Positions 6,013-56,298 are shown, counted from the first letter of the stretch. The stretch is DNA of 64,000 bases from a virus (IMGVR_UViG_3300015214_000033:4604-68603), one strand, 5' to 3'. Numbers and translations: made by a program. Notes: a model not told the origin generated them from the sequence alone.

Positions 6013-6711
6013 ATGAACTATCAATTAATATATGATCATCTGATATTGAGTCGTAAAGAAAGAATAAAAGATCCAAATATATACTATGAAATTCATCATA
6101 TTATATTGCGATCAATGGGTGGATCAAATTTACCAGATAATTTAGTATCATTAACTGCCAGAGAACATTTTATTGCACATTGGTTATTATGGAGAATTTA
6201 TAGAAATAAACAGACAGCATTTGCATTCTATGCAATGTGTTCGTGGAAAAATAATAAAATTCAAGGCAAAGAACGGTCATTTTCATCCAGAGGTTACGCT
6301 GAAGCAAGAGAAGCTCTTTCTAAAGTAAAATGGACACATTCTAAAGAGACTAAATGTAAGATATCAGAGATAAAAACTGGAGTAAAACTTGGACCTATTT
6401 CGAATCATAGGTCACAAAAGTTGAAACAATATTTTATAGATAATAAATATTTGAGAATATGTGTATGTAATGTATGTGGAAATACTTTTGAGATAACAAA
6501 AAAGAGCGCTAATAAAACAATATATTGTTCTAAAAAATGTGCAAGTAGTGTAACAAATAAGAACAAACGTATTATTGAGGTTATAAACAAAACAACGTAT
6601 GAAACATTTACTTTTGAATCTATTAGTAAAGCTGCTAAAGAACTAAATATTAATAGAAGTATAATTTATTCATATAAAGAACATCCTATTTATAAATTTA
6701 AAATAATATGA
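6013..6711 (+). CDS. HNH homing endonuclease with a NUMOD3-like motif
   Basis: YYEIHHIILRSMGGSNLPDNLVSLTAREHFIAHWLL; HSKETKCKISE. Confidence 0.85.
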   Translation: MNYQLIYDHLILSRKERIKDPNIYYEIHHIILRSMGGSNLPDNLVSLTAREHFIAHWLLWRIYRNKQTAFAFYAMCSWKNNKIQGKERSFSSRGYAEAREALSKVKWTHSKETKCKISEIKTGVKLGPISNHRSQKLKQYFIDNKYLRICVCNVCGNTFEITKKSANKTIYCSKKCASSVTNKNKRIIEVINKTTYETFTFESISKAAKELNINRSIIYSYKEHPIYKFKII

Positions 6712-8087
6712 TAGATATAGAACAGTTGAGTGACAGATTGAGAATTTCTTATTATGATGAATCTGGTCAGGTTGCATTAAAAGATATAGCAATACCAAAA
6801 GCTGAAAAATTTGCTTGGGAACCAGCAGGTTCATCTAGAGCAGATAGTAAATTTGTCAGTTGGGATAACAAACCTATTAAAAAGAAAAATTCATTCTTTC
6901 TTAATAAATTTAGAATTGAAGAATTTATGTTAGGTCTTCCTGATTATATTACAAACGAAGTGTATGATTTTCATCAACCAGAAGTTTGGTTTTGTGATAT
7001 TGAGGTAGAAGTTCAGGATTCATTTCCAGACCCTGAACAAGCTGCAACACCAATAACAACTGTTGCATTAGTAAATCCTAAGAATAAAGAAGTTGTTGTT
7101 CTTGGAGTTAAAGAACTTACAAATCAAGAAGTAAATGATATTTGTAAGAAAACAAATAAATACTTTGAACAATATAATCTAAACTTCACTCTCCAGTATG
7201 TTTGTTTTAAATCTGAGGCAGAAATGTTAATGACTTTAATGGAACATTATATCAAGAAAATTCCTCTATTGACAGGCTGGAATTTCGTTGGATTTGACTG
7301 GAAATATATTGTAAATCGTTGTCGACGCGTTGGAATTGATCCAGCTAAATGTTCTATTGCAGGTAAACTTATGGGCAAGGAAGAAATTCCTTTACATAAA
7401 GTGATTGTCGATTATTTGGAACTGTATAAAAAATGGGATAGAGTTGTAAAAATTAAAGAAAACAACAAACTTGATACGGTAGCAAATCAAGTTCTTGGAC
7501 TTGAAAAAATTAAATATAGTGGAACATTGATGGATTTGTATAATACAGATTTTTTCACTTATGTTTATTACAACATTGTCGATACAATCCTTGTTCATCT
7601 TATTGATGAAAAAATTAAAACGATGCAAACATTCTTAATGCTTGGAAATATTACAAGAGTTGAAGCATTAAAAGCATTTTCACCTATTTGGATGACTGAA
7701 ATTGTATTGGCTCGTGAATTTTATGCAAAAGGTAAAGTTGTGGCAGAAATGAATAAAGCCACAAAAACATCAGGATTTGAAGGTGCATATGTTAAAAAGC
7801 CAGAAGTTGGTCTACATGAACATATTGCTATCTTTGACTTTGCTTCTCTATATCCATCAACAATGAGACAGTGGAATATTTCTCCTGAAATGTATAAGGG
7901 TAAAAATGTTGAGTTAAAACCTGGTTGGATTAAAACAGCATCTGGTTCAGTGTTTGACAATAATTCTGATTCAGTTATGAGAACTATATTGGAGGATTTT
8001 TATGCTCAACGTAAAGTTGCAAAGAAGAAATCATTTGATATTGAAAAGGAAATTGATGAACTTGAACACATTCTTAAAACAAAATAA
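6708..8087 (+). CDS. Family B DNA polymerase, N-terminal part (3'-5' exonuclease plus motif A), gp43A-like
   Basis: CDIEVE, LTGWNFVGFDWKYI, YNIVDT, GAYVKKP and DFASLYPS. Ends in the fingers region before motif B. Confidence 0.9.
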   Translation: MIDIEQLSDRLRISYYDESGQVALKDIAIPKAEKFAWEPAGSSRADSKFVSWDNKPIKKKNSFFLNKFRIEEFMLGLPDYITNEVYDFHQPEVWFCDIEVEVQDSFPDPEQAATPITTVALVNPKNKEVVVLGVKELTNQEVNDICKKTNKYFEQYNLNFTLQYVCFKSEAEMLMTLMEHYIKKIPLLTGWNFVGFDWKYIVNRCRRVGIDPAKCSIAGKLMGKEEIPLHKVIVDYLELYKKWDRVVKIKENNKLDTVANQVLGLEKIKYSGTLMDLYNTDFFTYVYYNIVDTILVHLIDEKIKTMQTFLMLGNITRVEALKAFSPIWMTEIVLAREFYAKGKVVAEMNKATKTSGFEGAYVKKPEVGLHEHIAIFDFASLYPSTMRQWNISPEMYKGKNVELKPGWIKTASGSVFDNNSDSVMRTILEDFYAQRKVAKKKSFDIEKEIDELEHILKTK

Positions 8088-18969: not shown

Positions 18970-20145
18970 ATGAATTTTGAGTGGTGTAAAATAGACCCTG
19001 AAACTTCAACAAAAGAAGAATTAGAGGTTGAAATTAAAAGACTTAGAGATTTAGCAAACACATATATGAATGCTGAACAAGCAGTAAAGATCTTTATTAA
19101 CTCTGTATATGGAGCATGTGGTTCTCCGTGGTTTGCATTTTTCAATATGGATGTTGCAGAAGCAGTAACGTTACAGGGACAAGACCTTATCAAATATGCA
19201 GAACTGGTAGTTGATAGGTATTTCTTGAATTTTTGGCATAAAGATACTGAACTACATAAAAAGCTTGGTCTTACTAGAGTAGAAAAAGTTACAGGAACGA
19301 TGAATGTTTATTGTGATACGGATTCATCATTTGTGAGATTTTCAGAATTATTGGATAATTGTGATTGGAAAGGTACTCCTAAAGAATTTATTTTAAAGAT
19401 ATATGAAGTATTTTTATCAGACTATTTACAAAAATGTTTTGACATCTATGCCAAAAAACAGGGTACTGACAATGTACAATCTTTTGAACTTGAGAAAATA
19501 CTCGATTCAGGTGTTTGGTTAGCTAAAAAGAAATATGTATACAATACTGTGTGGAAAGATCCAGGTATTCATATAGATGCACTAAAAGAAATCACAGCAA
19601 AAGGTGTAGAAATTGTACAGTCATCATCTTCTCCTTATGCTAGAGCAACATTAAAAAATCTTTTAAAGTACATCTTTACTAAGAAGAGAGATTTTAATCA
19701 AGCAGAATTTATAGGTCTTCTTAAAAAATATAAAGAAGAGTTTAAACTAAAAAATCTTGAAGATATTTCTCATGCGTCTTCTATTGGAGATTATGACAAA
19801 CATGTACTTCAGGATAAAGATACACTTACGATTGGAAAGGGTTGTCCAATTCATGTAAGAGGCGCTGGAATTTATAATCATACTTTGTATAATTCTAAAT
19901 TTAGAAATAAATATGAAGCTATACATTCAGGTGAAAAGATCAAATATTATCATGTGAAAACAAAGGATGATGCAACAAATGTGTTTTCATATATTCCAGG
20001 GTCATTTCCTGTAGAATTTGCACCTCAGATTGATTATGATATGCAATTTAATAAAAGCATCATACAACCAATCAATCGATTTGTCGAAGCAATGGGATTT
20101 AGTCCAATAAGTTTCAATTTAGTATCATCAACACAATTATTTTAA
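18970..20145 (+). CDS. Family B DNA polymerase, C-terminal part (motifs B and C, thumb), gp43B-like
   Basis: EQAVKIFINSVYG, YCDTDS, KKKY and KGVEIVQS. Confidence 0.9.
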   Translation: MNFEWCKIDPETSTKEELEVEIKRLRDLANTYMNAEQAVKIFINSVYGACGSPWFAFFNMDVAEAVTLQGQDLIKYAELVVDRYFLNFWHKDTELHKKLGLTRVEKVTGTMNVYCDTDSSFVRFSELLDNCDWKGTPKEFILKIYEVFLSDYLQKCFDIYAKKQGTDNVQSFELEKILDSGVWLAKKKYVYNTVWKDPGIHIDALKEITAKGVEIVQSSSSPYARATLKNLLKYIFTKKRDFNQAEFIGLLKKYKEEFKLKNLEDISHASSIGDYDKHVLQDKDTLTIGKGCPIHVRGAGIYNHTLYNSKFRNKYEAIHSGEKIKYYHVKTKDDATNVFSYIPGSFPVEFAPQIDYDMQFNKSIIQPINRFVEAMGFSPISFNLVSSTQLF

Positions 20146-20844: not shown

Positions 20845-21012
20845 ATGAAAAAAATTAACACGAGAAAGTTAAATCAGTATTTTAACAGTATGTCAAATTC
20901 TCCCGAGATGAAAGGATTTGTTCAGGATGCAGTTAATCGTTATCTAGTAGATGAAACTGTAGATGTTAAAATTATCCAATTTTTGGACGATTTAGCATTA
21001 CTAACCGAATAA
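20845..21012 (+). CDS. Small hypothetical protein (55 aa)
   Basis: Read manually: MKKINTRKLNQYF...LALLTE*. Confidence 0.45.
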   Translation: MKKINTRKLNQYFNSMSNSPEMKGFVQDAVNRYLVDETVDVKIIQFLDDLALLTE

Positions 21013-21028
21013 AATAAACGTAAATTAA

Positions 21029-22012
21029 ATGGCAAAACAAGTAAAAGAATTTTCGTTTAGTGACTTAGATAAAACACTAACGAAAGTGGATCCGTTAGGA
21101 TCCGTTATGACAGAAAATTCATTCTCTAAAATTGATGATTGGATTGGAACTGGAAATTATATGCTGAATGCACAATTAGGTGGTTCTATTTTTAAAGGAG
21201 CACCGAATTCAAGAAGTATTGTATTTTCAGGTGTTTCTGGTACAGGTAAAACATTTATTGTACTAAATTCAGTGCGAGAAATGCAAAAGAAAGGTTACTA
21301 TGTAATATATGGTGACTCTGAAGCTGCGGTAGATGAAACTACTATGATAAATTTTGGAATTGATCCTGCAAAGATTAGATACCAACCGTTTAAAACTGTA
21401 TTACAAGTTAGACACTTTGTTGCTAATCTTACAACAACACTTAAAGAGAAAAAAGCAGCTGGATATGATGTTCCAAAGATTGGAATGGTGTTAGATTCTT
21501 TAGGTAACTTGGCAACTGAGAAAGAGGTTACAGATGCTCATTCAGGTTCTGATAAACGTGATATGACTAAGCAACAAAATCTTAAATCATTGTTTAGAGT
21601 AATTACAACAGATTTAGCGGAATTAAAAATTCCATTTTACATAACAAACCATGTATATGCATGTTTGCATGGAAATACTTTAGTTGAAACTAAAGATGGT
21701 CAAAAATACATATCAGATATTAAAGTTGGAGACTACGTCCACACAATGGATGGATTAAAGGATGTTATTAATACATTTAAGTATGATAATGCAAAAACAT
21801 TAATCATTGAAACTGAACACGGAAATATTGAATGTACTCCAAACCACAAATTCATGGTTAAAATAAATAATACATTTGAATGGAAATGTGCAGAAGATCT
21901 AAAAATAGATGATGAGATTTTAAAAATAGAGAAGTTTGACAGCATAGACATGATATATAAAGAAAACCGGAAATATCATGGTTCAGAACTCATTTCTTTT
22001 AACATTGAATAG
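21029..22012 (+). CDS. uvsX: UvsX/RecA fragment 1: N-extein plus split intein N-part (IntN1, 21662-22009, 116 aa)
   Basis: Walker A GVSGTGKT, LDSLG and ...ITNHVYA|CLHGNTLV; block B CTPNHKF; stop at 22010. Confidence 0.9.
   Translation: MAKQVKEFSFSDLDKTLTKVDPLGSVMTENSFSKIDDWIGTGNYMLNAQLGGSIFKGAPNSRSIVFSGVSGTGKTFIVLNSVREMQKKGYYVIYGDSEAAVDETTMINFGIDPAKIRYQPFKTVLQVRHFVANLTTTLKEKKAAGYDVPKIGMVLDSLGNLATEKEVTDAHSGSDKRDMTKQQNLKSLFRVITTDLAELKIPFYITNHVYACLHGNTLVETKDGQKYISDIKVGDYVHTMDGLKDVINTFKYDNAKTLIIETEHGNIECTPNHKFMVKINNTFEWKCAEDLKIDDEILKIEKFDSIDMIYKENRKYHGSELISFNIE
21952..21960 (+). promoter_or_regulatory. GATATATAA motif inside IntN1, upstream of endonuclease 1
   Basis: 17 nt before the ATG at 21978. 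Confidence 0.55.
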
Positions 22013-23176
22013 TAAATTACTAACATATTTGCATTCTAAAAATATACTTACAGATGACCAATTTGTTGATTACATTAAAAACATGAATGGAAATTCAACA
22101 GTTGGTTTATCTAAAGTATTAAAATCAACGAATTCAATGTCATATGTATTTTCATATTTCAATGAAAAAATAACATCAATGAAAGAATTAAAAAACTTTG
22201 TTGATCATGGCTATATAGAAGATTTACAAGATATTTGTATATGTGGTAATATTAAAAATGTTAATAAGAAGTATTGTTCTCATTCTTGTGCAATGAAAAA
22301 CAGAGATTTGACTATTAGAGATGCTGCTGCATTAAAAAGTAAAAAAACATGGGATTCATATGATAATAATAAGAAAGAGCAAATTAAGCAGAACCGTATA
22401 AATGGTATAATAAAAAAATACGGTACAGATCATGTATGGAAAAATCCTGAGTCTATTGAAAAACGAAAAAAAAAACATGGCTTAAAAAATATGGAGTAGA
22501 TAATCCAAATAAAAATTCTGAACAAATAAAAAAAGTTAAAAATACTAATATTGAACGATATGGATTTACATGTCCATTGAAAAATCATGAGATTAAACAG
22601 AAAAGTATGCAAACTTTATTTACAAATTTTGGTGTTGAGAATCCAATGCATGTAAAAGATATTTGTAATAAAGTAGTAAAATCATCTATACAAACATATT
22701 TAGATAAATGGGGATTTGAAAATCCATTCAATAATCCTAAATTTAAAGAATTATGGTTAGAAAAATTTGAAAAAAATATTAAAAAGTCATTTTCATATAA
22801 AGATTATGTACTACCAAGTGGTCATATAATAAAAGTATAAGGATATGAAAATTATGCTATTGATTATTTGATGAATAATTTTAATGAGAATGATTTTGTT
22901 TTTTCTTTTAAGATTAAAAGATTTCAGTATGAGTATGAAAATAAAAAAAGAACGTATATACCAGATATTTATATTAAATCTGTAAATACTATATATGAAG
23001 TTAAATCCAAATATACATTGGATAAAAATTTAGATACTACTATTTTAAAAGCAAAATCAGTTATTGATTCAGATATAAATTTTAATTTATTATTGTGTAA
23101 TACAAAACAAATAAAAATATTGACATATGAAGAACTTATCGACTATAAAAGTCAAAAATATCAAAGAATCTTTTAA
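21978..23176 (+). pseudogene. Degenerate free-standing PD-(D/E)XK-type homing endonuclease with KYGVDNP-type repeats
   Basis: Frameshift at A10 (22466-22475) and in-frame TAA at 22838 (KV*GYENYAIDYL); YIPDIYI...EVKS nuclease core. Confidence 0.75.
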
Positions 23177-23579
23177 TTCTGTATATGATATTGAAGTAAA
23201 AGATTCAAAACACTATATTTTATCAAATGGTATAGTATCTCATAATAGTGTTGGAAGTTATGTTCCATCTAACATACAATCAGGAGGTTGTTTAGTTCCT
23301 GGAACATTAGTTAGAACACCAAATGGAACTTCTAAAATAGAAGATATTAAAAAAGGTGATTATGTGATGACACTCAATGGTGAAAAAGAAGTATTAGATA
23401 CCTTTACATTTAATGAAGATGATGCAAAAAAAGTATGGGAAATAGAGTTAGATAATGGTATTATTCATAGAGTATCTGAAGATCATAAATTTTTAGTTTC
23501 CACAGATTGGAAAAATCCATATTCATGGAAAAAAATATATGAATTGAAAGAAACTGATGAAATATATGCAATAAAATAA
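23127..23579 (+). CDS. uvsX: UvsX/RecA fragment 2: IntC1 (40 aa), 14 aa extein, IntN2 (96 aa)
   Basis: VYDIEV...GIVSHN|SVGSYVPSNIQSGG|CLVPGT...VSEDHKF...*. Confidence 0.9.
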   Translation: MKNLSTIKVKNIKESFNSVYDIEVKDSKHYILSNGIVSHNSVGSYVPSNIQSGGCLVPGTLVRTPNGTSKIEDIKKGDYVMTLNGEKEVLDTFTFNEDDAKKVWEIELDNGIIHRVSEDHKFLVSTDWKNPYSWKKIYELKETDEIYAIK

Positions 23580-23606
23580 GTCCAATCAAAAAGCTCATTG
23601 CACATA

Positions 23607-23615
23607 GATATATAA
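23607..23615 (+). promoter_or_regulatory. GATATATAA motif upstream of endonuclease 2
   Basis: Intergenic, 13 nt before the ATG at 23629. Confidence 0.6.
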
Positions 23616-23628
23616 AATAAAAAGTGCA

Positions 23629-24678
23629 ATGAGCTATAAATGGACTAAAGATTTTAAAAATAGAGATTATGTTGAATTTAAAAATTTTTTTAAAGAACAT
23701 AATAAATTATTTAACTTGAACATTAATAATGATGATAACCTAACGAATATTTCTAAAAAAATGTCTGATTTATTAATAAATGAACATTCATTTGGAATAA
23801 ATCAAATATTATCAACATTTAGATCTATTGCAAAAAATTTTAGTAATAAAACACGTAGTGATGTATGTATAGAATACTATAGATTTAGAGGTTATGATGA
23901 TGATTACGCATATAATCAAATTTCAGAAAGACAACGTCGCAAATCTAAATTAAGTATTGAATATTGGTTAAATAAAGGATATGATGAAATTTCTGCTAAA
24001 GAACAAGTAAGTATTTTACAATCTAAATTATCAAAAAAGAGAACACATAAGATTTTATCAGATGAAAACTATGCAAAAAGTATTTCTGCGTGGTCTATTA
24101 ATTACTGGATAAAAAAGGGTCTAAGTAAAGAAGATGCTGCGGAGAAAATAAAAGAGTATAATCCGTCATGTAGAAATTTTTATGATACTAGTATTGCATA
24201 CGAAAATGCTAAAAAAAGTATATCAAAACGAGTTAAAAAATTATGGGAAAATGGTGTATATGATGATAAAGTTAAAATGATTAACACTCGATATACATCA
24301 AAGCAGGAAAAATTATTTTTTAACTTGTTAATAAATGAAAAAGAAATCGATAATTTTATATATGAACCATTTGGAATAAATGTTAGATCTAATTCAGATG
24401 ATTTTTATTATGTATATGATGCATATATTAAAACCAATGATGGAATTATTTTAGTAGAATATGATGGAACATATTGGCATGATATTGATAAAGATTTTAA
24501 GCGAGATGATGTTGTGTTGAATATAAGAAAAGATATTATAGGAGTTATAAGAATAAATGACTTTTATTTTTATAAATATAATCAAACTTTAAAAATAATT
24601 ATAAATAGTATACAAGATGGAATTGAAAAAATTAAAAATAAAGAAACTAACAGAGTTATCTTATATGAAAGTGCATGA
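23629..24678 (+). CDS. Free-standing Vsr/PD-(D/E)XK-like homing endonuclease
   Basis: YWxxKGYxxxxA repeats; C-terminal YDAYI...VEYDGTYWHD. Confidence 0.75.
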   Translation: MSYKWTKDFKNRDYVEFKNFFKEHNKLFNLNINNDDNLTNISKKMSDLLINEHSFGINQILSTFRSIAKNFSNKTRSDVCIEYYRFRGYDDDYAYNQISERQRRKSKLSIEYWLNKGYDEISAKEQVSILQSKLSKKRTHKILSDENYAKSISAWSINYWIKKGLSKEDAAEKIKEYNPSCRNFYDTSIAYENAKKSISKRVKKLWENGVYDDKVKMINTRYTSKQEKLFFNLLINEKEIDNFIYEPFGINVRSNSDDFYYVYDAYIKTNDGIILVEYDGTYWHDIDKDFKRDDVVLNIRKDIIGVIRINDFYFYKYNQTLKIIINSIQDGIEKIKNKETNRVILYESA

Positions 24679-25342
24679 TATTTCTGTTAAAGATGTTGAA
24701 CATTATATTTTAGATGATGGAATTATTTCACATAATTCAGGAGCAATTTATAATGCATCTATCATTTTAGAATTTGCGAAAGCAGGATTGAAAGAAAATG
24801 ATAAAGAAGCTGCTGAACAAGGTCAACAAAAATCTGGTATCGTTGTAACTTCTAAAGTTGTAAAAAATCGTTTTGCAAGACCTCTTCCAATCAAGTTCCA
24901 TATCTCTTTTTATAAAGGTATGAATCCTTATGTTGGACTTGAAAATTATGTTTCATGGGAAACCTGTGGAATCGAGAGAGGTAAACTTATTGAGGAAATC
25001 ATAGAAGAACCTGTTTTCGAGGACGATGGAGTAACACCTGTAATTTATAGAGGTAAACCTAAGGTAAACAAAGTAAATACAGGAAAAATGATATTTGAGC
25101 CTGATCCTAAAGGTAAAAAGTTTGCTGTTAAACATCTTGGAAAAGAAGTTAAAAACATCTTTACATCAGAAGTTTTTACTGATGAAGTTTTACAGCAATT
25201 GGATGATGTTATCAGACCTATTTTTGAACTTCCAAAGACAATGACAACTGATTTTGATGAGTTGGAAGAAGCAATGGGATTCGATGATGACGATGATGAC
25301 GTTGATGAAATGGATGAAAGATTTATTCAAGATGAAGCTTAA
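24617..25342 (+). CDS. uvsX: UvsX/RecA fragment 3: IntC2 (40 aa) plus C-extein
   Basis: VHDISV...GIISHN|SGAIYNASIILEF...KNRFARP; acidic tail. Confidence 0.9.
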   Translation: MELKKLKIKKLTELSYMKVHDISVKDVEHYILDDGIISHNSGAIYNASIILEFAKAGLKENDKEAAEQGQQKSGIVVTSKVVKNRFARPLPIKFHISFYKGMNPYVGLENYVSWETCGIERGKLIEEIIEEPVFEDDGVTPVIYRGKPKVNKVNTGKMIFEPDPKGKKFAVKHLGKEVKNIFTSEVFTDEVLQQLDDVIRPIFELPKTMTTDFDELEEAMGFDDDDDDVDEMDERFIQDEA

Positions 25343-28762: not shown

Positions 28763-29770
28763 AATATGTCCGGAATGTGGAGATACTATCATATATAAGA
28801 ATAAATATAAAATGAATTCTGATAGTAAAAAAGGCATTCTTTGTAAATTATGTAGAAAAAAATATAGAAAAAAAACATATTCATGTTTTAATAAACTTCA
28901 TTGGATAGATAAAGGGTATTCTGAAAAAGATGCTATAAAAAAGGTATTTGAAATACAATCTAAAATTTCAAAAAAACGAAAACCAGAAACACGTACTGGC
29001 AAAAATTCACCCTTTAAAAAGGAAACATGGATTGCAAAGGGATATTCTGAAGAAGAAGCAATAAAAAAATCAAGAAGCTTTAATAAACTTAATAAAGAGT
29101 ATTGGATTGCAAAGGGATATTCTGAAGAAGAAGCAATAAAAAATATTTCATTATTTCAACAATCGTTGGCTAAAAGGAAAAAAAAGAATGACGATATTCT
29201 ACCAAATCAATATAAATATTGGATAAAGAAAGGATATTCTGAAGAAGAAGCAAAAGCAAAAGTCTGTGAACGTCAATCTACATTTACATTAGAAAAATGT
29301 AAACAAAAATATGGTATAGAAAAAGGAACAATAATTTTTAATGAAAGACAACGTAAATGGAAACAGAAAATTTTCAATAAATACGGTTCAATTGCTAAAT
29401 CTACATCTAGTTATAATATTATGATTGCTGAAACATTGATGATAGAATATCCTAATATTTTATTTGGAAAAGATGAAAAATTCATATATGATAATGTTAA
29501 TGAAAGAGTATATAAATATGATATATGTGATCCTATTTCTAAAAAATAATAGAAATAAATGGAGATTTTTGGCACATGAATCCATATAAATATTCATGTA
29601 CAGATATAAATCCAGTAACAAAAAATATGGCTATCGATATATGGAATTTTGATAAAATTAAAATTCAATGTGCAATAGATCATAATTATACCGTATTAGT
29701 TATATGGGAATCTGATATAGTTAATAATAAAGATAAAATATTAGAAAAATGCAAGAATTTTTTGAAATAG
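28740..29770 (+). CDS. Free-standing Vsr-like homing endonuclease (frameshift at A6 29541-29546)
   Basis: CPECG zinc motif, four WIxKGYSEEEA repeats, and across the shift KIIEINGDFWHMNP...LVIWESD. Confidence 0.75.
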
Positions 29771-31686
29771 AATGTACACTTGAAGAGTTATATGAATATA
29801 ATAAACATGCTAATTCTATATATGATAATAAAATATATGTTAGTACAAAATTTGGAAAAAAATGTATAGAAAATATTGCATATACTGCATATAATGAACC
29901 TACTTTATCAATAAGAACAGAAACAGAAAAAAATATAAAAGTTTCTAATAATCATATTTTATATGATGTTAATGGTATTGAAATTAAATCAAAAGATTTA
30001 GAAATTGGAAATTATATAGAAACTACAGATGGATATGAATTAATAACATATATAGAATCGATTGGTAATTACGATTTAATGGATATACAAGTAGACGATG
30101 TTCATGAATATTACGCTAATGGTATTCGTTCACACAACTCAACAATATCTGATGTTATTAAATTTGCTATTTATGGAAGATTGGAGAAAAAGAAACTTCG
30201 CGATCTTGCAAACCGTTTAAATAAAAATGCATATGTTCATATAGATATGATTACCAAAAAAGGTAAACTTACTATTGAACGAGGTATAGAACCAAGCATA
30301 TTTGATGTTTGGATAAACGATGTAAAATTCGATAAAGCCGGAAAGAAATCTGTTCAAGATTATTTAGAAGAAGAAATTTTAGAGATGCCATTTTATGTAT
30401 TTTCTAATACACTTTCACTTTCAATAAATGATTTTAAGAGTTTTTTGACCATGAATAATCACGATAAGAAAACTATCATTGATAAAATATTTGGCTTACA
30501 AATGTTAAATCAAATGAGAGAACTTATCAAAGGTCAGATCAAAAAGCTTAAAAGTAATATGGATGCTATTGATTCTAGCATCTCTGCATTTGAACATAGT
30601 TTAACTACATCAACCACCGAATTAGAAACACTAGAAGAACAAATTAAACAGGATAAATCTGATAAAATAGTAAAGTTAAATGAACAAAAACTAATTTATG
30701 AAGATGGTTTAAGAAAGTGTTTATCCAATTTAGAAAAAATAGAAGCAAAATATACAGAGATTAGAAAATCAAAAGTATCTGTACAAAATTCTATTTCAGA
30801 TGATAGAAGAAATAAAGCTATTGCACAAGAGAAAATCGATCTATATAAAAACTCAAAATGTCCTGTTTGTGAATCTGATCTTGATACAGATTTTCATACA
30901 ACTATTTTAAAAGAGTATCAAAATGCGTCTATAGAACTTGATGAATCTATGGCTGCTAAAACAGAAACTCTAAATAAGTTAAATGAAAATCTTAAGAAAT
31001 TAGAAAGTCTTAAAACTGATACAGAACGAAATAGAGGCTCTATTAGATCTAAATTAAATTTAACTCAAAGAGAAATTGACGAGTCTAGTGAAACAATAGA
31101 TGACAAACAATTAGGCTCATTGCGTAAGATAATTAAAGATGCTAAAACAAACATCGATACAAATAAGAAAGCACATGTAAATACTCAAAAAGAAGTATCT
31201 TTCTATGGAATCTTGGATGAAATACTTGGAGATAAAGGAGTAAAACAACTCGCAATTAAAACAATTGTTCCACCATTAAATGTGGAAATTGGACGAATTG
31301 TAAAACATCTTGGTGTAGATCATAAAATTATTTTTAATGAAGAGTTTGATGCAAAAATAACTCACTTTGGAATTGAAGTTAGTCCAGAAACACTTAGTAC
31401 AGGTGAAATGAAAAAGGTCGATTTTGCAGTTTTACTTGCTGTTATAAAAATGATGAAGATAAAATATCCATATTTGAATTTGTTATTTTTAGATGAAATA
31501 TTTTCAAGTATTGATGGTGATGGACAGTATTATATTCTAAAGATATTAAGAGAAAGTGTTAAAGATTATGGACTGAATATATTCGTTATCAGCCACTATC
31601 CGTTATCATATTCCGAGTTTGATTATAAAATAGAAGTAACAAAAGCGAATGGCTTTTCGCAAATGGAAATAAAAACCGTAGAATAA
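29749..31686 (+). CDS. SbcC/gp46 fragment 2: long IntC (130 aa, to 30138) plus C-extein
   Basis: VSNNHIL (block B), LMDIQV...YYANGIRSHN|STISD; CPVC zinc hook, LSTGE signature and LFLDE. Confidence 0.9.
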   Translation: MQEFFEIECTLEELYEYNKHANSIYDNKIYVSTKFGKKCIENIAYTAYNEPTLSIRTETEKNIKVSNNHILYDVNGIEIKSKDLEIGNYIETTDGYELITYIESIGNYDLMDIQVDDVHEYYANGIRSHNSTISDVIKFAIYGRLEKKKLRDLANRLNKNAYVHIDMITKKGKLTIERGIEPSIFDVWINDVKFDKAGKKSVQDYLEEEILEMPFYVFSNTLSLSINDFKSFLTMNNHDKKTIIDKIFGLQMLNQMRELIKGQIKKLKSNMDAIDSSISAFEHSLTTSTTELETLEEQIKQDKSDKIVKLNEQKLIYEDGLRKCLSNLEKIEAKYTEIRKSKVSVQNSISDDRRNKAIAQEKIDLYKNSKCPVCESDLDTDFHTTILKEYQNASIELDESMAAKTETLNKLNENLKKLESLKTDTERNRGSIRSKLNLTQREIDESSETIDDKQLGSLRKIIKDAKTNIDTNKKAHVNTQKEVSFYGILDEILGDKGVKQLAIKTIVPPLNVEIGRIVKHLGVDHKIIFNEEFDAKITHFGIEVSPETLSTGEMKKVDFAVLLAVIKMMKIKYPYLNLLFLDEIFSSIDGDGQYYILKILRESVKDYGLNIFVISHYPLSYSEFDYKIEVTKANGFSQMEIKTVE

Positions 31687-52341: not shown

Positions 52342-55300
52342 ATGAGTTTAACAGAGTTTAATGATGACTTCAGTAAAGAAGTTTACGAACAAACCTACCG
52401 CTTCGGAGATGAAGACATCGATGGAACACATTACAGAGTTGCAGCAGAATTAGCAAAAGCTGAAAAAGATCCAAAACATTGGACTGAAAAATTTGCTTAT
52501 GCTTTGAGAAACTTTTCATTTGTACCTGGAGGTAGAATAACATCTAATGCAGGTACTGGTTTAAAAGGAACAACTTACATCAATTGTTTTGTTGATGGAT
52601 TTGTTGGTCAAGATCAAGATTCAATGGATAGTATAATGACTGCATTGAGACGCCAAGCTATGATATTGAAATCAGAAGGAGGATATGGATTTTGTGCAGA
52701 TGTTTTACGTCCTCGCGGTGGATTTATAAATGGTATTGGAAATGAATCTCCTGGTTCAATTAAAATGCTAGATATGTGGGACACACAATCAGAAGTTATT
52801 ACCGCAGGTAGTGGAAAAAAATCTACTCACAAACAAGCTAAACAAAAAATTCGTAAGGGTGCTCAAATGGTTACTATGTCATGTTGGCATCCAGATGTTG
52901 AAGAATTTATTACTGCTAAACAAACACCAGGAAGACTTACTAAATTTAATATGTCAGTATTGATTACTGATGATTTCATGAAAGCAGTTGAAAATGATTC
53001 TGATTGGGATTTAATATTTCCAGATTATGATGCTGCTAAAGAAGAATATGTTACTGTATGGGATAATGGTAATATTAATGAATGGGTTAATAAAGGTTTG
53101 CCAGTAAAAGTGTATAAGACAATAAAAGCTAAGGCTTTGTGGGATCTTATCATGAATTCTACATACACTAGAAATGAGCCTGGAGTTTTATTTATTGATA
53201 CTATCAATAAATTAAACAATTTGAAATATTGTGAAAACATAAACAGCACAAATCCATGTGTTATTGGAAGTACAATAGTTGCAGTTGCAGATGGCAGAAA
53301 TGGTGTGGATATTAAAACCTTAGCTGAAGAAGGTAAAGATGTGCCAGTATATGCGAAAGATGAAAATGGTATGACTGTTATCAAAATGATGAGAAATCCA
53401 AGAATAACAGGATATGAACAGGATGTGTATGAGGTATTATTAGATGATGGCACAAAACTTCCACGATGCACAGGAAATCACAAATGGAAAATGAAAGATG
53501 GTTCATATAAACAAACTATAGACCTAAATAAAGGTGATAGTATTAATATCACATCTAAATGGGGTTCTACGTGGTCAGAAATTATGGGTGAAAAAAGTAA
53601 TTCAAAATCACAACAATATTGGATGACTAATAACGGTAAATCTAATATATTTGAACATAAACTTATATATGAACAATTAACTGGTACTAAAATACCAAGT
53701 GGTTATGTCATCCATCATAAAGATTTTAATGGGTCTAATAATTCTATAGATAATCTTCAATTGATGTCAAAACAAGAACATGATGCATTACACGATATAT
53801 CAGGAGATAATAATCCAGTGAGAAGGTTTCCAGAATGTAATTGGATGAATAATCCAGAAATACAAAAAAGAGTACGTGATCAACACAGAGTTGGTAAACC
53901 ATTATCTGATATTACTAAGCGTAGAATAAGTAAAAAAATTAATGATTTACATAAAGATGAAAAATTTATAAAAAAAATGATTGATGGCATACATTCTGCT
54001 AGAATAGAAAAAGGCACAGAATGGAATAAAAAAATGATAGATACCAGACTAAAAAATAGGGAAATAAAATTAAAAAATCTGGTTGACGAGTTCCAATTAT
54101 TAACAGATTTAGAATGTTTTTATGATGGTCACGATATACGTGTTCATAAATCATGTGAAGAATGTGGTGCTGAATTTACTCCACTCTTTAATAGGAGAGA
54201 GCAGGCATATTGTTCACATGCATGCAGTATTAAAAATACTACAAGAAAAGCTGCGATTTCTAATAATAAAAGAGCTATTGAAAAAAAGTCTATTCTAATA
54301 GAGATTGGATATGATATATTTTGTAAATATACTGTAGAAAATAAACAAATTCCACCTAGGCGTTCTTTTGAAATGTTATTGAATGAGCATGAAATCAATG
54401 ATATACGAACACTTGGATTCTTTTCTTATAATGATATGGTTAAATATTATTGTGATAGATATAATGTAAAGTTTGAATCACCTAAAAAATGGTCAAATAA
54501 ACATCATAAAAGTATCGCAGAAGATCTTATTGAAAATGGAATGTTATGGAATCATAAGATAGTTTCAGTAAATTTAGTAGGTAAAGAAACAGTATATAAT
54601 GGCACTGTTGATGATGTTCATAACTTCGATATAATTTTTTCAGAAGAAAAGACTGCATCAGGAAGACCTAAATTTATGATGGCTAATAATTTGCAATGTG
54701 GAGAACAAATACTTCCAGTTGGTGGAGTTTGTTTATTAGGTTCATTAAATCTTACACAATTTGTGAAAGAGGATTTATCAGGATGGGATTATGATAGATT
54801 AGCTGAAATTATTCCAATTGCCGTTCGTATGATGGATAACGTAAATGATATAACATATGTTCCGTTACAAGAACAACATGATTCATTAATAAATAAACGA
54901 AGAATTGGACTTGGAGTTTTAGGTTATGCTTCTGCATTAATGATGATGAAAGTAAGATATGGTTCAAAACAGGCTATCAAACTTACTGATGATTTAATGA
55001 GTTTTATTTCTAATACTGCATATTCTACATCATCTGATTTGGCTGCAGAAAAAGGTTCATTCTTAAAATTTGATAAAGACGAGTATTTAAAAAGCGAATT
55101 TATTAAAGTATTAAAACCTGAGACAATAGAAAAAATCAAAAAACAGGGTCTTCGCAACTCTCATTTGTTATCTATACAACCAACAGGTAATTCATCAGTA
55201 TTTGCAAATAACGTATCTGGAGGTCTAGAACCATTATTTATGACAGAATATGTTAGAACTGCAATATTTCCATATCCACCTGAAGGGTTAGTATTACCAA

Positions 55301-56298
55301 AATCAATTGACTTTGGAAATAAAACATTTGTGAATGAAGGTACACAAGATTGGATGTGGGTTAAAGAAGGCGATGAAAACTTGTTAGTAACATCATTTGG
55401 AGATTATGTTTGGAAGGTAGATAAAAGTAGAGGTTTACTTAGAGAAACTGTTGTTAAAGATTATGCAGTAAAAGTTCTTGAACAAACTGGAGAATGGGAC
55501 CCTGATGCTGATTGGGCTGCAACATCTATGGAAATTTCTATTGAAGATCACGTCAATACAATGAAATCATTTTCAGTATTTATTGATAGCGCAATGTCTA
55601 AAACGGTAAATCTACCAGAAGATTACAAATATGAAGATTTTAAAAATCTTTATAAAGAAGTGTATGAAACTGGTACAATAAAAGGTGTAACAACATATAG
55701 AGCTGGAACAATGACTTCAGTACTTGCATCTAAAGATGCAAACATGAATAAAGATGTTGATTTAATACCTAAAACAAAAGCTCCAAAACGACCAAAAGAA
55801 TTACGTTGTGATATTCACAACGTAATGGTCGAAGGAAAATATTGGATCGTAATTATCGGTTTAATTGGAAATGATCCATATGAAGTATTTGCATTTCCTC
55901 GTACAGGTGTTCAAATACACAACAAATTCAAATCAGGTAAACTGATAAAAGTTAAAAGTGGAGTATACAATTTAGTGATAGGAGATGATGAAATTATTTT
56001 GGAAAATGTAGCATCATTGTTTGGAACAAATGAACAAGAAGCGCTTTCAAGAATGGTTTCAACGGCTCTTAGACATGGTGCTGACATCGGTTTTATTGTT
56101 GAACAATTACAAAAATCACAGGGAACTATTGTTCAATTTGCAAAATGTCTTGGACGAACACTAAATAAATATATCTCCGCAAACTCAGCAGTAGGTAAAA
56201 GAACACTTGATTGTGATGTTTGTGGTGGAAAACAAACACTTGTGATGAGAGAAGGTTGTTTCGTATGTAAAAATTGTGGAAATAGCAAGTGTGGTTAA
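52342..56298 (+). CDS. nrdJ: Class II (B12-dependent) ribonucleotide reductase with a cis intein
   Basis: PGGRI, NCFV, TNP|C...|CGEQ, CLLGSLNL and SIQPTG; C-terminal TSCPD-like and zinc-ribbon domains. Confidence 0.88.
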   Translation: MSLTEFNDDFSKEVYEQTYRFGDEDIDGTHYRVAAELAKAEKDPKHWTEKFAYALRNFSFVPGGRITSNAGTGLKGTTYINCFVDGFVGQDQDSMDSIMTALRRQAMILKSEGGYGFCADVLRPRGGFINGIGNESPGSIKMLDMWDTQSEVITAGSGKKSTHKQAKQKIRKGAQMVTMSCWHPDVEEFITAKQTPGRLTKFNMSVLITDDFMKAVENDSDWDLIFPDYDAAKEEYVTVWDNGNINEWVNKGLPVKVYKTIKAKALWDLIMNSTYTRNEPGVLFIDTINKLNNLKYCENINSTNPCVIGSTIVAVADGRNGVDIKTLAEEGKDVPVYAKDENGMTVIKMMRNPRITGYEQDVYEVLLDDGTKLPRCTGNHKWKMKDGSYKQTIDLNKGDSINITSKWGSTWSEIMGEKSNSKSQQYWMTNNGKSNIFEHKLIYEQLTGTKIPSGYVIHHKDFNGSNNSIDNLQLMSKQEHDALHDISGDNNPVRRFPECNWMNNPEIQKRVRDQHRVGKPLSDITKRRISKKINDLHKDEKFIKKMIDGIHSARIEKGTEWNKKMIDTRLKNREIKLKNLVDEFQLLTDLECFYDGHDIRVHKSCEECGAEFTPLFNRREQAYCSHACSIKNTTRKAAISNNKRAIEKKSILIEIGYDIFCKYTVENKQIPPRRSFEMLLNEHEINDIRTLGFFSYNDMVKYYCDRYNVKFESPKKWSNKHHKSIAEDLIENGMLWNHKIVSVNLVGKETVYNGTVDDVHNFDIIFSEEKTASGRPKFMMANNLQCGEQILPVGGVCLLGSLNLTQFVKEDLSGWDYDRLAEIIPIAVRMMDNVNDITYVPLQEQHDSLINKRRIGLGVLGYASALMMMKVRYGSKQAIKLTDDLMSFISNTAYSTSSDLAAEKGSFLKFDKDEYLKSEFIKVLKPETIEKIKKQGLRNSHLLSIQPTGNSSVFANNVSGGLEPLFMTEYVRTAIFPYPPEGLVLPKSIDFGNKTFVNEGTQDWMWVKEGDENLLVTSFGDYVWKVDKSRGLLRETVVKDYAVKVLEQTGEWDPDADWAATSMEISIEDHVNTMKSFSVFIDSAMSKTVNLPEDYKYEDFKNLYKEVYETGTIKGVTTYRAGTMTSVLASKDANMNKDVDLIPKTKAPKRPKELRCDIHNVMVEGKYWIVIIGLIGNDPYEVFAFPRTGVQIHNKFKSGKLIKVKSGVYNLVIGDDEIILENVASLFGTNEQEALSRMVSTALRHGADIGFIVEQLQKSQGTIVQFAKCLGRTLNKYISANSAVGKRTLDCDVCGGKQTLVMREGCFVCKNCGNSKCG
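53257..54696 (+). mobile_element. 480 aa intein with an HNH endonuclease and a C-terminal Gln
   Basis: NP|CVIGST, CTGNHKW, IHHKDFNGSNNSIDNLQLM, VYNGTVDDVHNF and ANNLQ|CGEQ. Confidence 0.88.

Follow-up and report, generated by a model that had tools for sequence, protein, structure and literature searches.

The uvsX recombinase gene of a large uncultured phage from landfill and groundwater is distributed over three ORFs, which together span 21029-25342 on the + strand of the window (the whole 64,000-nt stretch of DNA that was analyzed). We posit that two separate split-intein cassettes probably invaded this gene, such that three proteins would be joined by trans-splicing into one UvsX. A preliminary description of this DNA had proposed that uvsX is encoded as three polypeptides with two split inteins, and this is supported by the motifs, the collinearity with uninterrupted UvsX, an empty second site, selection and relatives. 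All the elements that it named lie where it had placed them:

21029..22012, + strand: ORF1, a 211-aa N-extein followed by IntN1 of 116 aa, ending in the double stop TAG TAA
21029..21661, + strand: N-extein of UvsX (211 aa), comprising Walker A and the RecA core as far as the presumed start of loop L2
21662..22012, + strand: IntN1, N half of split intein 1, 116 aa plus TAG TAA, with Cys1 and a block B Thr-x-x-His
21978..23176, + strand: HEG1, free-standing DUF7487 homing-endonuclease gene, a pseudogene here, with Pfam DUF7487 on all three pieces
23127..23579, + strand: ORF2, IntC1 of 40 aa, a 14-aa extein and IntN2 of 96 aa, ending in TAA
23127..23246, + strand: IntC1, C half of split intein 1, 40 aa, ending in His-Asn (Pfam Intein_splicing profile positions 119-155)
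23247..23288, + strand: middle extein, 14 residues, starting with the predicted Ser+1 nucleophile of intein 1
23289..23579, + strand: IntN2, N half of split intein 2, 96 aa plus TAA, Cys first (nt 23289)
23579..23646, + strand: RNA hairpin in the ORF2-HEG2 gap, predicted at -25.5 kcal/mol (z -8.1; none of 200 shuffled sequences as stable)
23629..24678, + strand: HEG2, intact predicted free-standing homing-endonuclease gene, 349 aa, with a helical N-terminal region and a C-terminal Vsr-like nuclease domain
24617..25342, + strand: ORF3, IntC2 of 40 aa followed by a C-extein of 201 aa
24617..24736, + strand: IntC2, C half of split intein 2, 40 aa, ending in His-Asn (Pfam Intein_splicing profile positions 122-155)
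24737..25342, + strand: UvsX C-extein, 201 aa plus stop, starting with the predicted Ser+1 nucleophile of intein 2

In each cassette, a free-standing homing endonuclease gene would separate the two halves of a canonical split mini-intein, and uvsX would have been invaded at two sites, by element 1 (21662-23246), with its now decayed DUF7487 endonuclease gene, and by element 2 (23289-24736), with an intact gene of the Vsr/EDxHD type. Of the three proteins made, IntN1 would pair with IntC1 and IntN2 with IntC2, and each pair is predicted to act by class-1 protein trans-splicing, in which the Cys1 thioester is attacked by Ser+1 and the terminal Asn then cyclizes. Either reaction could come first, the order being immaterial, and the end product would be one UvsX of 426 aa. 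We infer that the three ORFs are co-expressed, that each intein splices and that the halves do not mispair.

The host gene matches the PHROG profile of UvsX-like recombinases (E 4e-37), ORF1 scores 30.9 bits against the Pfam RecA cut-off of 27, and PDB structures of UvsX (7Z3M, E 1e-30; 9GBG) align with it up to about residue 213 of the N-extein, which itself shares 79% identity with P0012, an uninterrupted UvsX of 447 aa present on 43 contigs. The C-extein likewise has a PHROG recombinase match and is collinear with uninterrupted UvsX, and the 14 residues of the middle extein align without a gap with the same residues in the uninterrupted UvsX proteins P0012, P0013, P0016 and P0027. Joining the three exteins yields a deduced 426-aa protein with an intact P-loop that is 77% identical to P0012 and collinear with it, without a gap at either junction, in agreement with the earlier claim that removal of the inteins restores an intact UvsX L2-loop region. 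By our reading of the RecA motif, the middle extein would occupy the position of the DNA-binding loop L2, and the two insertion sites, 14 codons apart, would mark the start and the end of this loop.

All four intein halves have Pfam Hint or Intein_splicing matches, which answers the earlier suggestion of an intein-profile check. IntN1, whose first residue is Cys212 of ORF1 (nt 21662), matches the Intein_splicing and Hint profiles, and ORF2 matches Hint_2 above its cut-off by way of IntN2; the remaining Pfam intein matches do not reach the curated cut-offs, which is expected of half domains. In the PDB, both N halves find the gp41-1 split intein (6QAZ; E 8e-6 for IntN1 and 3e-7 for IntN2). The block B of IntN1 is Thr-Pro-Asn-His; that of IntN2, Ser-Glu-Asp-His, aligns with Ser-Glu-Glu-His of gp41-1. 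Both C junctions have His-Asn followed by Ser, with Thr in place of this Ser at site 2 in L001 and L011, two relatives of the locus. The canonical Cys1...His-Asn/Ser junctions previously described are thus confirmed by the motifs, and Cys1, the block-B His, the terminal His-Asn and Ser/Thr+1 are retained at both sites in every homolog examined. Both inteins possess the complete motif set of class-1 inteins with the Hint fold, and splicing itself is predicted from it. Other conserved features are the C-terminal tail of about 25 aa of IntN1, also seen in L001, and the start Met of each C half (that of IntC1 in P0002, P0003 and P0005, and that of IntC2 in L001 and L011).

Read-through between the pieces is not possible. 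ORF1, HEG2 and ORF2 each lie in their own frame, three frames in all; the frame of ORF1 contains 29 stops of all three kinds before 23300. The stretch 23577-23628 between ORF2 and HEG2 has stops in all three frames, as first described, and a single frameshift cannot restore the frame. Each of the three stop codons terminates long ORFs in the window; therefore, recoding does not explain the split. Reading the sequence by eye, we saw no Shine-Dalgarno-like sequence that stands out before ORF2 and ORF3, and none of the runs on record as RNA holds the locus.

The two endonuclease genes are of different kinds and in different states. HEG1, which also has a PHROG homing endonuclease match, has fallen into three pieces (21978-22499, 22577-22840 and 22868-23176), a detail missing from the preliminary description: an A-run near 22466 has grown by 2 nt, and a TAA interrupts the frame at 22838. 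An intact 398-aa allele is present in L006, L008, L009 and L010, contigs that are otherwise 99.9% identical, and other contigs show the 2-nt deletion and the T>C change at these breaks. This gene shares 35 nt with ORF1 and 50 nt with ORF2, leaving no non-coding gap next to ORF1, and shows no significant RNA fold. HEG2 overlaps IntC2 by 62 nt at its 3′ end and is separated from ORF2 by 49 nt; the predicted hairpin in this gap has an inner stem of 12 perfect pairs (23592-23603 with 23624-23635, the perfect inverted repeat I5), and its 3′ arm contains the HEG2 start codon. Among Pfam and PHROG profiles, HEG2 itself has no match, and Foldseek alone returns weak PD-(D/E)xK matches only. We recovered 289 relatives of it; among 40 of these, two match a profile (one MTES_1575 and one DUF559), and the Atlas leads for HEG2 point to DUF559. 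Its AlphaFold2 model (pLDDT 92.8) aligns by VIA-align with Vsr (1CW0; Z 10.1, rmsd 2.6 Å over 107 residues) and with I-Bth0305I (3R3P; Z 8.5, 93 of 98 residues). E227, D264, E277, D279, H284 and D293 are invariant or near-invariant, with E227, D264, H284 and D293 invariant or at least 90% conserved in the 40 relatives, and the His-to-Asp spacing of 9 equals that from H213 to D222 of I-Bth0305I. Based on this model, we predict that the C-terminal domain of HEG2 adopts a Vsr-like (EDxHD-type) nuclease fold and that the protein is a homing endonuclease.

The search for homologs that had been suggested recovered the same layout in independent contigs and in diverged relatives. Assemblies from JGI, ENA, NCBI and Logan contain 15 contigs with an identical middle ORF, and the five contigs that we fetched are 99.9-100% identical to the window over 4.4 kb and share its layout. 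In contigs of runs X11 and X13 (a biofilm run and a wastewater run), 23288 is joined to 24743 with only two Ser-Gly codons between them, which is a precise empty site of element 2. Among relatives, dN/dS is 0.07-0.11 for IntN2, 0.08 for IntC2 and 0.005 for the adjoining extein, values that cover intein 2, since the relatives of intein 1 available as DNA are at one of two extremes, 99.9% identity or saturation. The halves of intein 2 are, accordingly, under purifying selection.

Relatives carry one, two or three splits in uvsX. Some contigs have intein 1 only with an intact endonuclease gene, and the P0005 contig has intein 1 only with just a 61-aa ORF where this gene would lie. Conversely, L011 and P0014 have intein 2 only, with a HEG2 homolog (in L011, in the same position as in the window). 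Contiguous mini-inteins occupy site 1 in P0026 and L012 and site 2 in P0042, and the architecture of the middle piece recurs in P0002 and P0003 at 50-56% identity. L001 has uvsX in four pieces with three split inteins. In the third of these, the ORF at 2068-2349 ends in a 25-aa Cys-initiated tail after the P-loop Gly, and the long C half at 2410-2802 matches VidaL (6VGV; E 5e-15), which makes it an atypically split intein of the VidaL type (short IntN, long IntC). Both sites are recurrent intein sites of uvsX, and the window represents the far end of a common polymorphism.

An artifact of assembly or sequencing (a chimeric contig, for example, or an erroneous frameshift) might be suspected because HEG1 breaks at a homopolymer, where sequencing errors are common; its probability is vanishingly small, given the identical middle ORF on 15 contigs from independent assemblies and samples (with a shared layout in the five fetched), the multiple stops in all frames at the ORF ends and a layout common to diverged relatives. 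Selfish elements could instead be destroying uvsX, leaving no full-length active UvsX and a phage that uses another recombinase or the host RecA. HEG1 has already decayed in this strain, and about 22% of the phage genome is in hand, so that a second, intact recombinase gene may lie elsewhere. Moreover, uvsX is not strictly essential in T4, where it is dispensable for plaque formation, and a crippled gene could therefore persist for a while. We nevertheless consider such destruction improbable: unlike the adjoining endonuclease gene, the exteins and intein halves have no stop, frameshift or lost catalytic residue; dN/dS is low on the intein-2 halves and lower still on the adjoining extein; and relatives with intein halves only 48-68% identical still have uvsX in three or four pieces. 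The chance is slimmer still that the pieces assemble non-covalently, with the intein halves as docking domains. The fragmented NrdA of Aeromonas phage Aeh1 offers a precedent (PMC3045599): there, a homing endonuclease gene splits the phage gene, and the pieces assemble via interaction domains derived from a mobile element. However, pure docking would not need the catalytic residues that are kept at both sites, and two bulky Hint domains at the presumed L2 DNA-binding loop would make DNA binding unlikely.

Cross-pairing of the two related inteins would give off-pathway products. Their N halves share 46% identity and their C halves 51%, a likeness similar to that of the orthologous halves of the window and L001, and both inteins have the same charge polarity, with an acidic IntN and a basic IntC N-terminus. 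The earlier view that two mutually orthogonal pairs are needed holds as to the two pairs, but orthogonality is not visible in the sequence: with such identity and polarity, it is a requirement deduced from the layout. Significant cross-reaction, with extra products beside full-length UvsX, is on balance unlikely, though with an appreciable chance: IntN1 with IntC2 would yield UvsX minus the 14 middle residues, and IntC1 with IntN2 of the middle protein would yield a cyclic or concatenated 14-mer, the order IntC-insert-IntN being that of the donor constructs of engineers (PMC11185735). Split inteins engineered from one parent cross-splice, whereas strict orthogonality is seen for a pair at 35% identity (PMC12707363). 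Against extensive cross-reaction, two charged IntC positions differ consistently between site 1 and site 2 (Glu/Gln versus Ser/Thr; His/Lys versus Glu) and could set the pairing specificity, and diverged lineages retain the double state, so that whatever cost it has would seem to be tolerable. Further, the site-1 and site-2 inteins fall into separate groups: in the IntN tree, the site-2 inteins form one group (support 89/78), in which IntN2 joins those of other lineages, indicating that the two inteins were acquired separately.

The closest parallels are the fractured genes of Dassa, London, Stoddard, Schueler-Furman and Pietrokovski 2009 (PMC2677866), including gp41-1, gp41-8, NrdJ-1, IMPDH-1 and NrdA-2, in which a host gene of T4-like phages is broken by a canonical split intein; the preliminary description had mentioned such single fractures. 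As in those loci, all parts lie on one strand, the C halves have their own start Met and the N halves a stop, and between the halves lies a free-standing Vsr-like homing endonuclease gene (here HEG2) with a hairpin upstream, a region analyzed in that study. The intein halves of the window are most similar to gp41-1 of this set. Unlike the 26 loci reported there, which have one fracture each and in which uvsX is merely a neighboring gene, uvsX is fractured twice here and three times in L001 (three and four pieces versus two), has a 14-residue extein between intein halves, and has in HEG1 an endonuclease gene that overlaps both flanking ORFs with no preceding non-coding gap. The cultured T4-like Yersinia phage vB_YenM_TG1 (KP202158) has a split-intein uvsX with the insertion site of intein 2 and a related IntN (39% identical), but with one fracture only and a GIY-YIG endonuclease; its record annotates two 'RecA-like recombination protein' CDSs without mention of an intein. 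None of 50,697 phage records covers at least 80% of the middle ORF of the window. VidaL (PDB 6VGV, 6VGW) resembles the third intein of L001, a type absent from this window; in both, the P-loop Gly-Lys comes directly after the C half. It is named after its UvsX or helicase host from Lake Vida. In the literature passages that treat it, VidaL is a single split intein used as a tool and not part of a multi-split gene. Proteins with multiple inteins, such as DnaB of Mycobacterium smegmatis with two (PMC6195587), share with the window the presence of more than one intein per replication or repair protein at conserved functional sites; unlike the window, these splice in cis from one polypeptide and face no pairing problem. 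The preliminary description named no natural three-way case, and the literature that we searched likewise yielded no published natural gene with multiple split inteins. The arrangement would thus be a natural form of multi-piece protein ligation, which we found described there for engineered proteins only. These engineered systems of tandem protein trans-splicing or 'protein transposition' (PMC12707363, PMC7090010, PMC11185735) likewise use three segments, two split inteins and a middle construct of the form IntC-insert-IntN; they are designed, with inteins chosen and tested for orthogonality and usually used in vitro, whereas the window presents a natural counterpart with two related inteins.

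We found the uvsX recombinase gene of this phage (21029-25342) to be distributed over three ORFs, which we predict to be joined at the protein level by two split inteins. Intein 1 and the endonuclease gene HEG1 constitute element 1 (21662-23246), and intein 2 and the endonuclease gene HEG2 constitute element 2 (23289-24736). Every gene in the locus lies on the plus strand:

21029-22012, plus strand: ORF1 (327 aa), N-extein and N half of intein 1 (IntN1)
21978-22499, 22577-22840 and 22868-23176, plus strand: HEG1, a DUF7487 gene between IntN1 and IntC1, broken into three pieces
23127-23579, plus strand: ORF2 (150 aa), C half of intein 1 (IntC1), middle extein and N half of intein 2 (IntN2)
between IntN2 and IntC2, plus strand: HEG2, a 349-aa ORF
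24617-25342, plus strand: ORF3 (241 aa), C half of intein 2 (IntC2) and C-extein

ORF1 opens with the RecA/UvsX core (matched by Pfam RecA and the PHROG UvsX-like recombinase), along which the UvsX sequences of PDB 7Z3M and 9GBG align as far as about residue 213, and changes at Cys212 to a 116-aa intein N half that ends in TAG TAA. ORF2 combines a 40-aa C half with a His-Asn end, 14 extein residues and a 96-aa N half beginning with Cys, an arrangement that leaves this 150-aa ORF meaningless unless it is read as an IntC-extein-IntN piece. ORF3 comprises a 40-aa C half with a terminal His-Asn and the UvsX C-terminus of 201 residues, initiated by Ser. A profile search of each ORF, as proposed in the preliminary description, returned Pfam intein/Hint matches for all four halves, and both IntN1 and IntN2 match the gp41-1 split intein (6QAZ). 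ORF3 has no match among PDB sequences at E <= 0.01, and the collinearity of the C-extein was therefore established with metagenomic UvsX proteins. The three exteins together give a 426-aa product that is 77% identical to P0012, an uninterrupted 447-aa metagenomic UvsX found on 43 contigs, and aligns without gaps at both junctions with it and with three other uninterrupted homologues, which bears out the earlier claim that excising the inteins restores an intact UvsX region. Given the conserved motif C-terminal to them, we read the middle 14 residues as occupying the position of loop L2 in RecA-type proteins.

The preliminary description had also held that a single frameshift cannot explain the split, and this stands: no reading frame is free of stops in the gap at 23577-23628, the frame of ORF1 encounters 29 stops before 23300 with all three stop kinds represented, and ORF1, ORF2 and HEG2 occupy three different reading frames. 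Since long ORFs in the window end with TAA, TGA and TAG alike, the pieces are not joined by recoding or a single frameshift, and recoding or read-through as the cause of the split was rejected by this stop and frame analysis. A sigma-70 promoter scan gave no more sites than shuffled sequences, no terminators were found within the locus, and the regions surrounding the HEG1, ORF2 and ORF3 starts gave no significant fold. The description of UvsX as three polypeptides linked by two split inteins is confirmed as an observation and supported as an interpretation by the DNA and the comparison with relatives, from which we infer expression, splicing and faithful pairing. In the most likely working of the locus, three proteins would be made, the cognate intein halves would pair, and two class-1 trans-splicing reactions would then yield one UvsX; the sequencing runs listed for the locus include no RNA runs.

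The arrangement recurs across independent assemblies: 15 contigs from JGI, ENA, NCBI and Logan assemblies have an identical middle ORF, and the five that were fetched share 99.9-100% identity with the window across 4.4 kb. Several landfill and groundwater metagenome studies contributed the runs with most of the locus. The window belongs to a 68.6-kb virus record with an estimated completeness of only 22%, so the phage is probably large; the nearest relatives of its UvsX C-terminus are those of Lak and other huge phages, at about 35% identity. A megablast search with the locus as query gave no match among 50,697 phage records, and the suggested search for syntenic homologues in IMG/VR yielded no confirmed relative with the middle ORF as query.

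These near-identical contigs also show that HEG1 is intact, at 398 aa, in four of the five fetched contigs from other assemblies. In the window, the gene differs by 2 nt in the length of an A-run near 22466 (22466-22477) and has a TAA at 22838 (CAA>TAA), where T>C in other contigs restores a Gln codon. Both changes break HEG1, and hence two of the very few inter-strain differences disable this gene, while the adjoining intein halves are untouched. Searches with HEG2 gave no match in Pfam, PHROG or the PDB sequences; the protein has 289 relatives, and an alignment of 40 of these preserves a Glu, Asp, His and Asp set with the His-to-Asp spacing of I-Bth0305I. Foldseek with its AlphaFold2 model (pLDDT 92.8) returned weak matches only, and a wide VIA-align search related the C-terminal domain of the model to Vsr (1CW0, Z 10.1) and to the catalytic domain of I-Bth0305I (3R3P, Z 8.5). 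By the conserved residues and the modeled fold, HEG2 is a predicted member of the EDxHD family, which was discovered in fractured genes (PMC2677866). Its start codon lies within the 3′ arm of a hairpin with a perfect 12-bp stem (-25.5 kcal/mol, z -8.1); hairpin regions 5′ of endonuclease genes in fractured genes were analyzed by Dassa et al. (PMC2677866).

Relatives of the locus display further states of occupancy at both sites. Two contigs, one each from a biofilm and a wastewater run, follow the window from 21007 to 23288 and then jump to 24743, with six letters in between that make up two codons, Ser-Gly; by this alignment, they carry the exact empty site of element 2. Intein 1 and HEG1, the latter intact, are retained in both. 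Identity to the window drops from about 95% upstream of the site to about 85% downstream (24737-25290), and the Ser+1 codon of these contigs belongs to the other codon family, a pattern that fits co-conversion of the flank when element 2 arrived. As judged from gene tables and protein sequences, P0005 has intein 1 only, with a 61-aa ORF in place of the endonuclease gene, and its C piece is 96% identical over the shared part. The converse state, intein 2 only, together with a HEG2 homolog, is found in the contig L011 and the protein P0014, through which the state of P0004, taken from the same kinds of data, was later confirmed. Contiguous mini-inteins occur at site 1 (P0026) and site 2 (P0042), and two other metagenomes contain the middle piece with 50-56% identity (P0002 and P0003).

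Among marine contigs, a T4-like uvsX (L012:249-1771) combines the two forms: site 1 contains a contiguous mini-intein of 125 aa, and the intein at site 2 is split, with its halves only about 60 nt apart, such that one UvsX would require both cis and trans splicing; four others (L013-L016) are split at site 2, with an HNH endonuclease gene or without any. In one of these (L015:3270-3920), a gp41-type helicase ORF ends soon after a Cys that replaces the P-loop, an ending suggestive of the short N half in an atypically split intein; the helicase is uninterrupted in the related contig L014. The cultured T4-like Yersinia phage vB_YenM_TG1 (KP202158.1, 19461-22039) has its uvsX as two CDSs split at the intein-2 site and separated by a gene for a GIY-YIG homing endonuclease; both CDSs are annotated "RecA-like recombination protein", and an intein is nowhere mentioned in the record. 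In this way, split uvsX genes are filed as separate "RecA-like" or hypothetical proteins. By tblastn, Prevotella phage Lak-B5 (MK250024.1, about 519655-522077) contains an IntN2-like piece and, about 1.5 kb away on the same strand, an IntC2/C-extein piece, and the Lak-B megaphages may also have a uvsX split at site 2. The most fragmented version is on an 8.1-kb metagenome contig (L001:2068-6012), where uvsX comprises four ORFs and three split inteins: beyond the two inteins of the window, there is an atypically split intein in the P-loop, with an N half of 25 aa and a long C half that matches VidaL (6VGV, E 5e-15), an intein presumably named after UvsX or a T4-like helicase. The DUF7487 gene that accompanies the site-1 intein of this contig is intact (404 aa), and there is no endonuclease gene at the site-2 intein; the endonuclease-free gaps of the contig have no significant fold. 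Each site varies independently between empty, contiguous, split with an endonuclease gene and split without one, which makes the whole homing cycle readable from metagenomes for a single gene.

The halves of intein 2 have dN/dS values of 0.07-0.11 (IntN2) and 0.08 (IntC2) among L001, L011 and the further contig L002; such low values at a synonymous divergence of 0.3-0.7 indicate that they are maintained as working proteins. Within the window, inteins 1 and 2 are 46% identical in their N halves and 51% in their C halves, roughly the level seen between the window and L001 for orthologous halves (48-68%), and they have in common a charge polarity, in which IntN is acidic and the N-terminus of IntC basic. 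An origin of intein 2 by duplication of intein 1 in place was rejected, as the site-2 inteins of distant lineages cluster and the endonuclease families differ: in a maximum-likelihood tree of 26 IntN sequences, a branch supported at 89/78 and present in 90% of bootstrap trees has all 13 site-2 inteins on the same side. This grouping, together with the two endonuclease families, argues for separate acquisition of the two inteins through homing. Two charged positions of the IntC alignment differ consistently by site and are candidate specificity determinants.

Engineered pairs of one parent cross-splice, and a pair with 35% identity is strictly orthogonal (PMC12707363). A mismatch of IntN1 with IntC2 would remove the 14 middle residues, and one of IntC1 with IntN2 in the middle protein would cyclize or concatenate them. 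As the uvsX inteins are relatives, the locus could in principle yield more than one product, namely full-length UvsX, UvsX minus 14 residues and a cyclic or concatenated 14-mer in a ratio set by the divergence of the pairs, an outcome that we regard as improbable. Were it true, the clade would be a natural experiment in which split inteins of 46-51% identity are turning orthogonal in one gene, and such alternative products would be new for a natural system. If, instead, the pairs are orthogonal, these naturally co-resident split inteins, acting 14 residues apart on one protein, would be candidates for one-pot multi-fragment ligation and would help identify the residues that set pairing specificity between related inteins.

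Elsewhere in the window, the family B DNA polymerase is encoded by two genes about 11 kb apart (6708-8087 and 18970-20145), with genes for topoisomerase, a Gp23-like protein and thioredoxin in the interval. One contains the exonuclease domain and the start of the polymerase domain and the other the polymerase domain from profile position 147 onward; Pfam detects no intein half in these two genes. In the ribonucleotide reductase large subunit (52342-56298, 1318 aa), an intein profile matches roughly residues 315-762, a stretch that includes an HNH_3 endonuclease domain (439-481). An SbcC/Rad50-like ORF (29749-31686, 645 aa) shows weak N-terminal intein-profile matches (genome scan E 7e-7) and may have another P-loop intein.

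Like the loci of Dassa et al. (PMC2677866), this uvsX is a fractured gene, but it has two fractures, whereas their 26 loci have one each and mention uvsX solely as a neighbor. Several contiguous inteins per protein are known (PMC6195587). Our full-text literature search recovered single fractures in nature, tandem trans-splicing in engineered systems only and no natural multi-split gene, though specialists may know more. Such fractures can evidently stack within one gene, with two in the window and three in L001. We would regard the locus not as a new principle but as a probable natural multi-piece splicing system with related inteins and many states for comparison. Joining three segments through two split inteins is an established engineering design (PMC12707363, PMC7090010, PMC11185735), as is the IntC-insert-IntN construct (PMC11185735), and the middle protein, with IntC1, 14 residues and IntN2, has the layout of this engineered donor and would be a natural counterpart of it.
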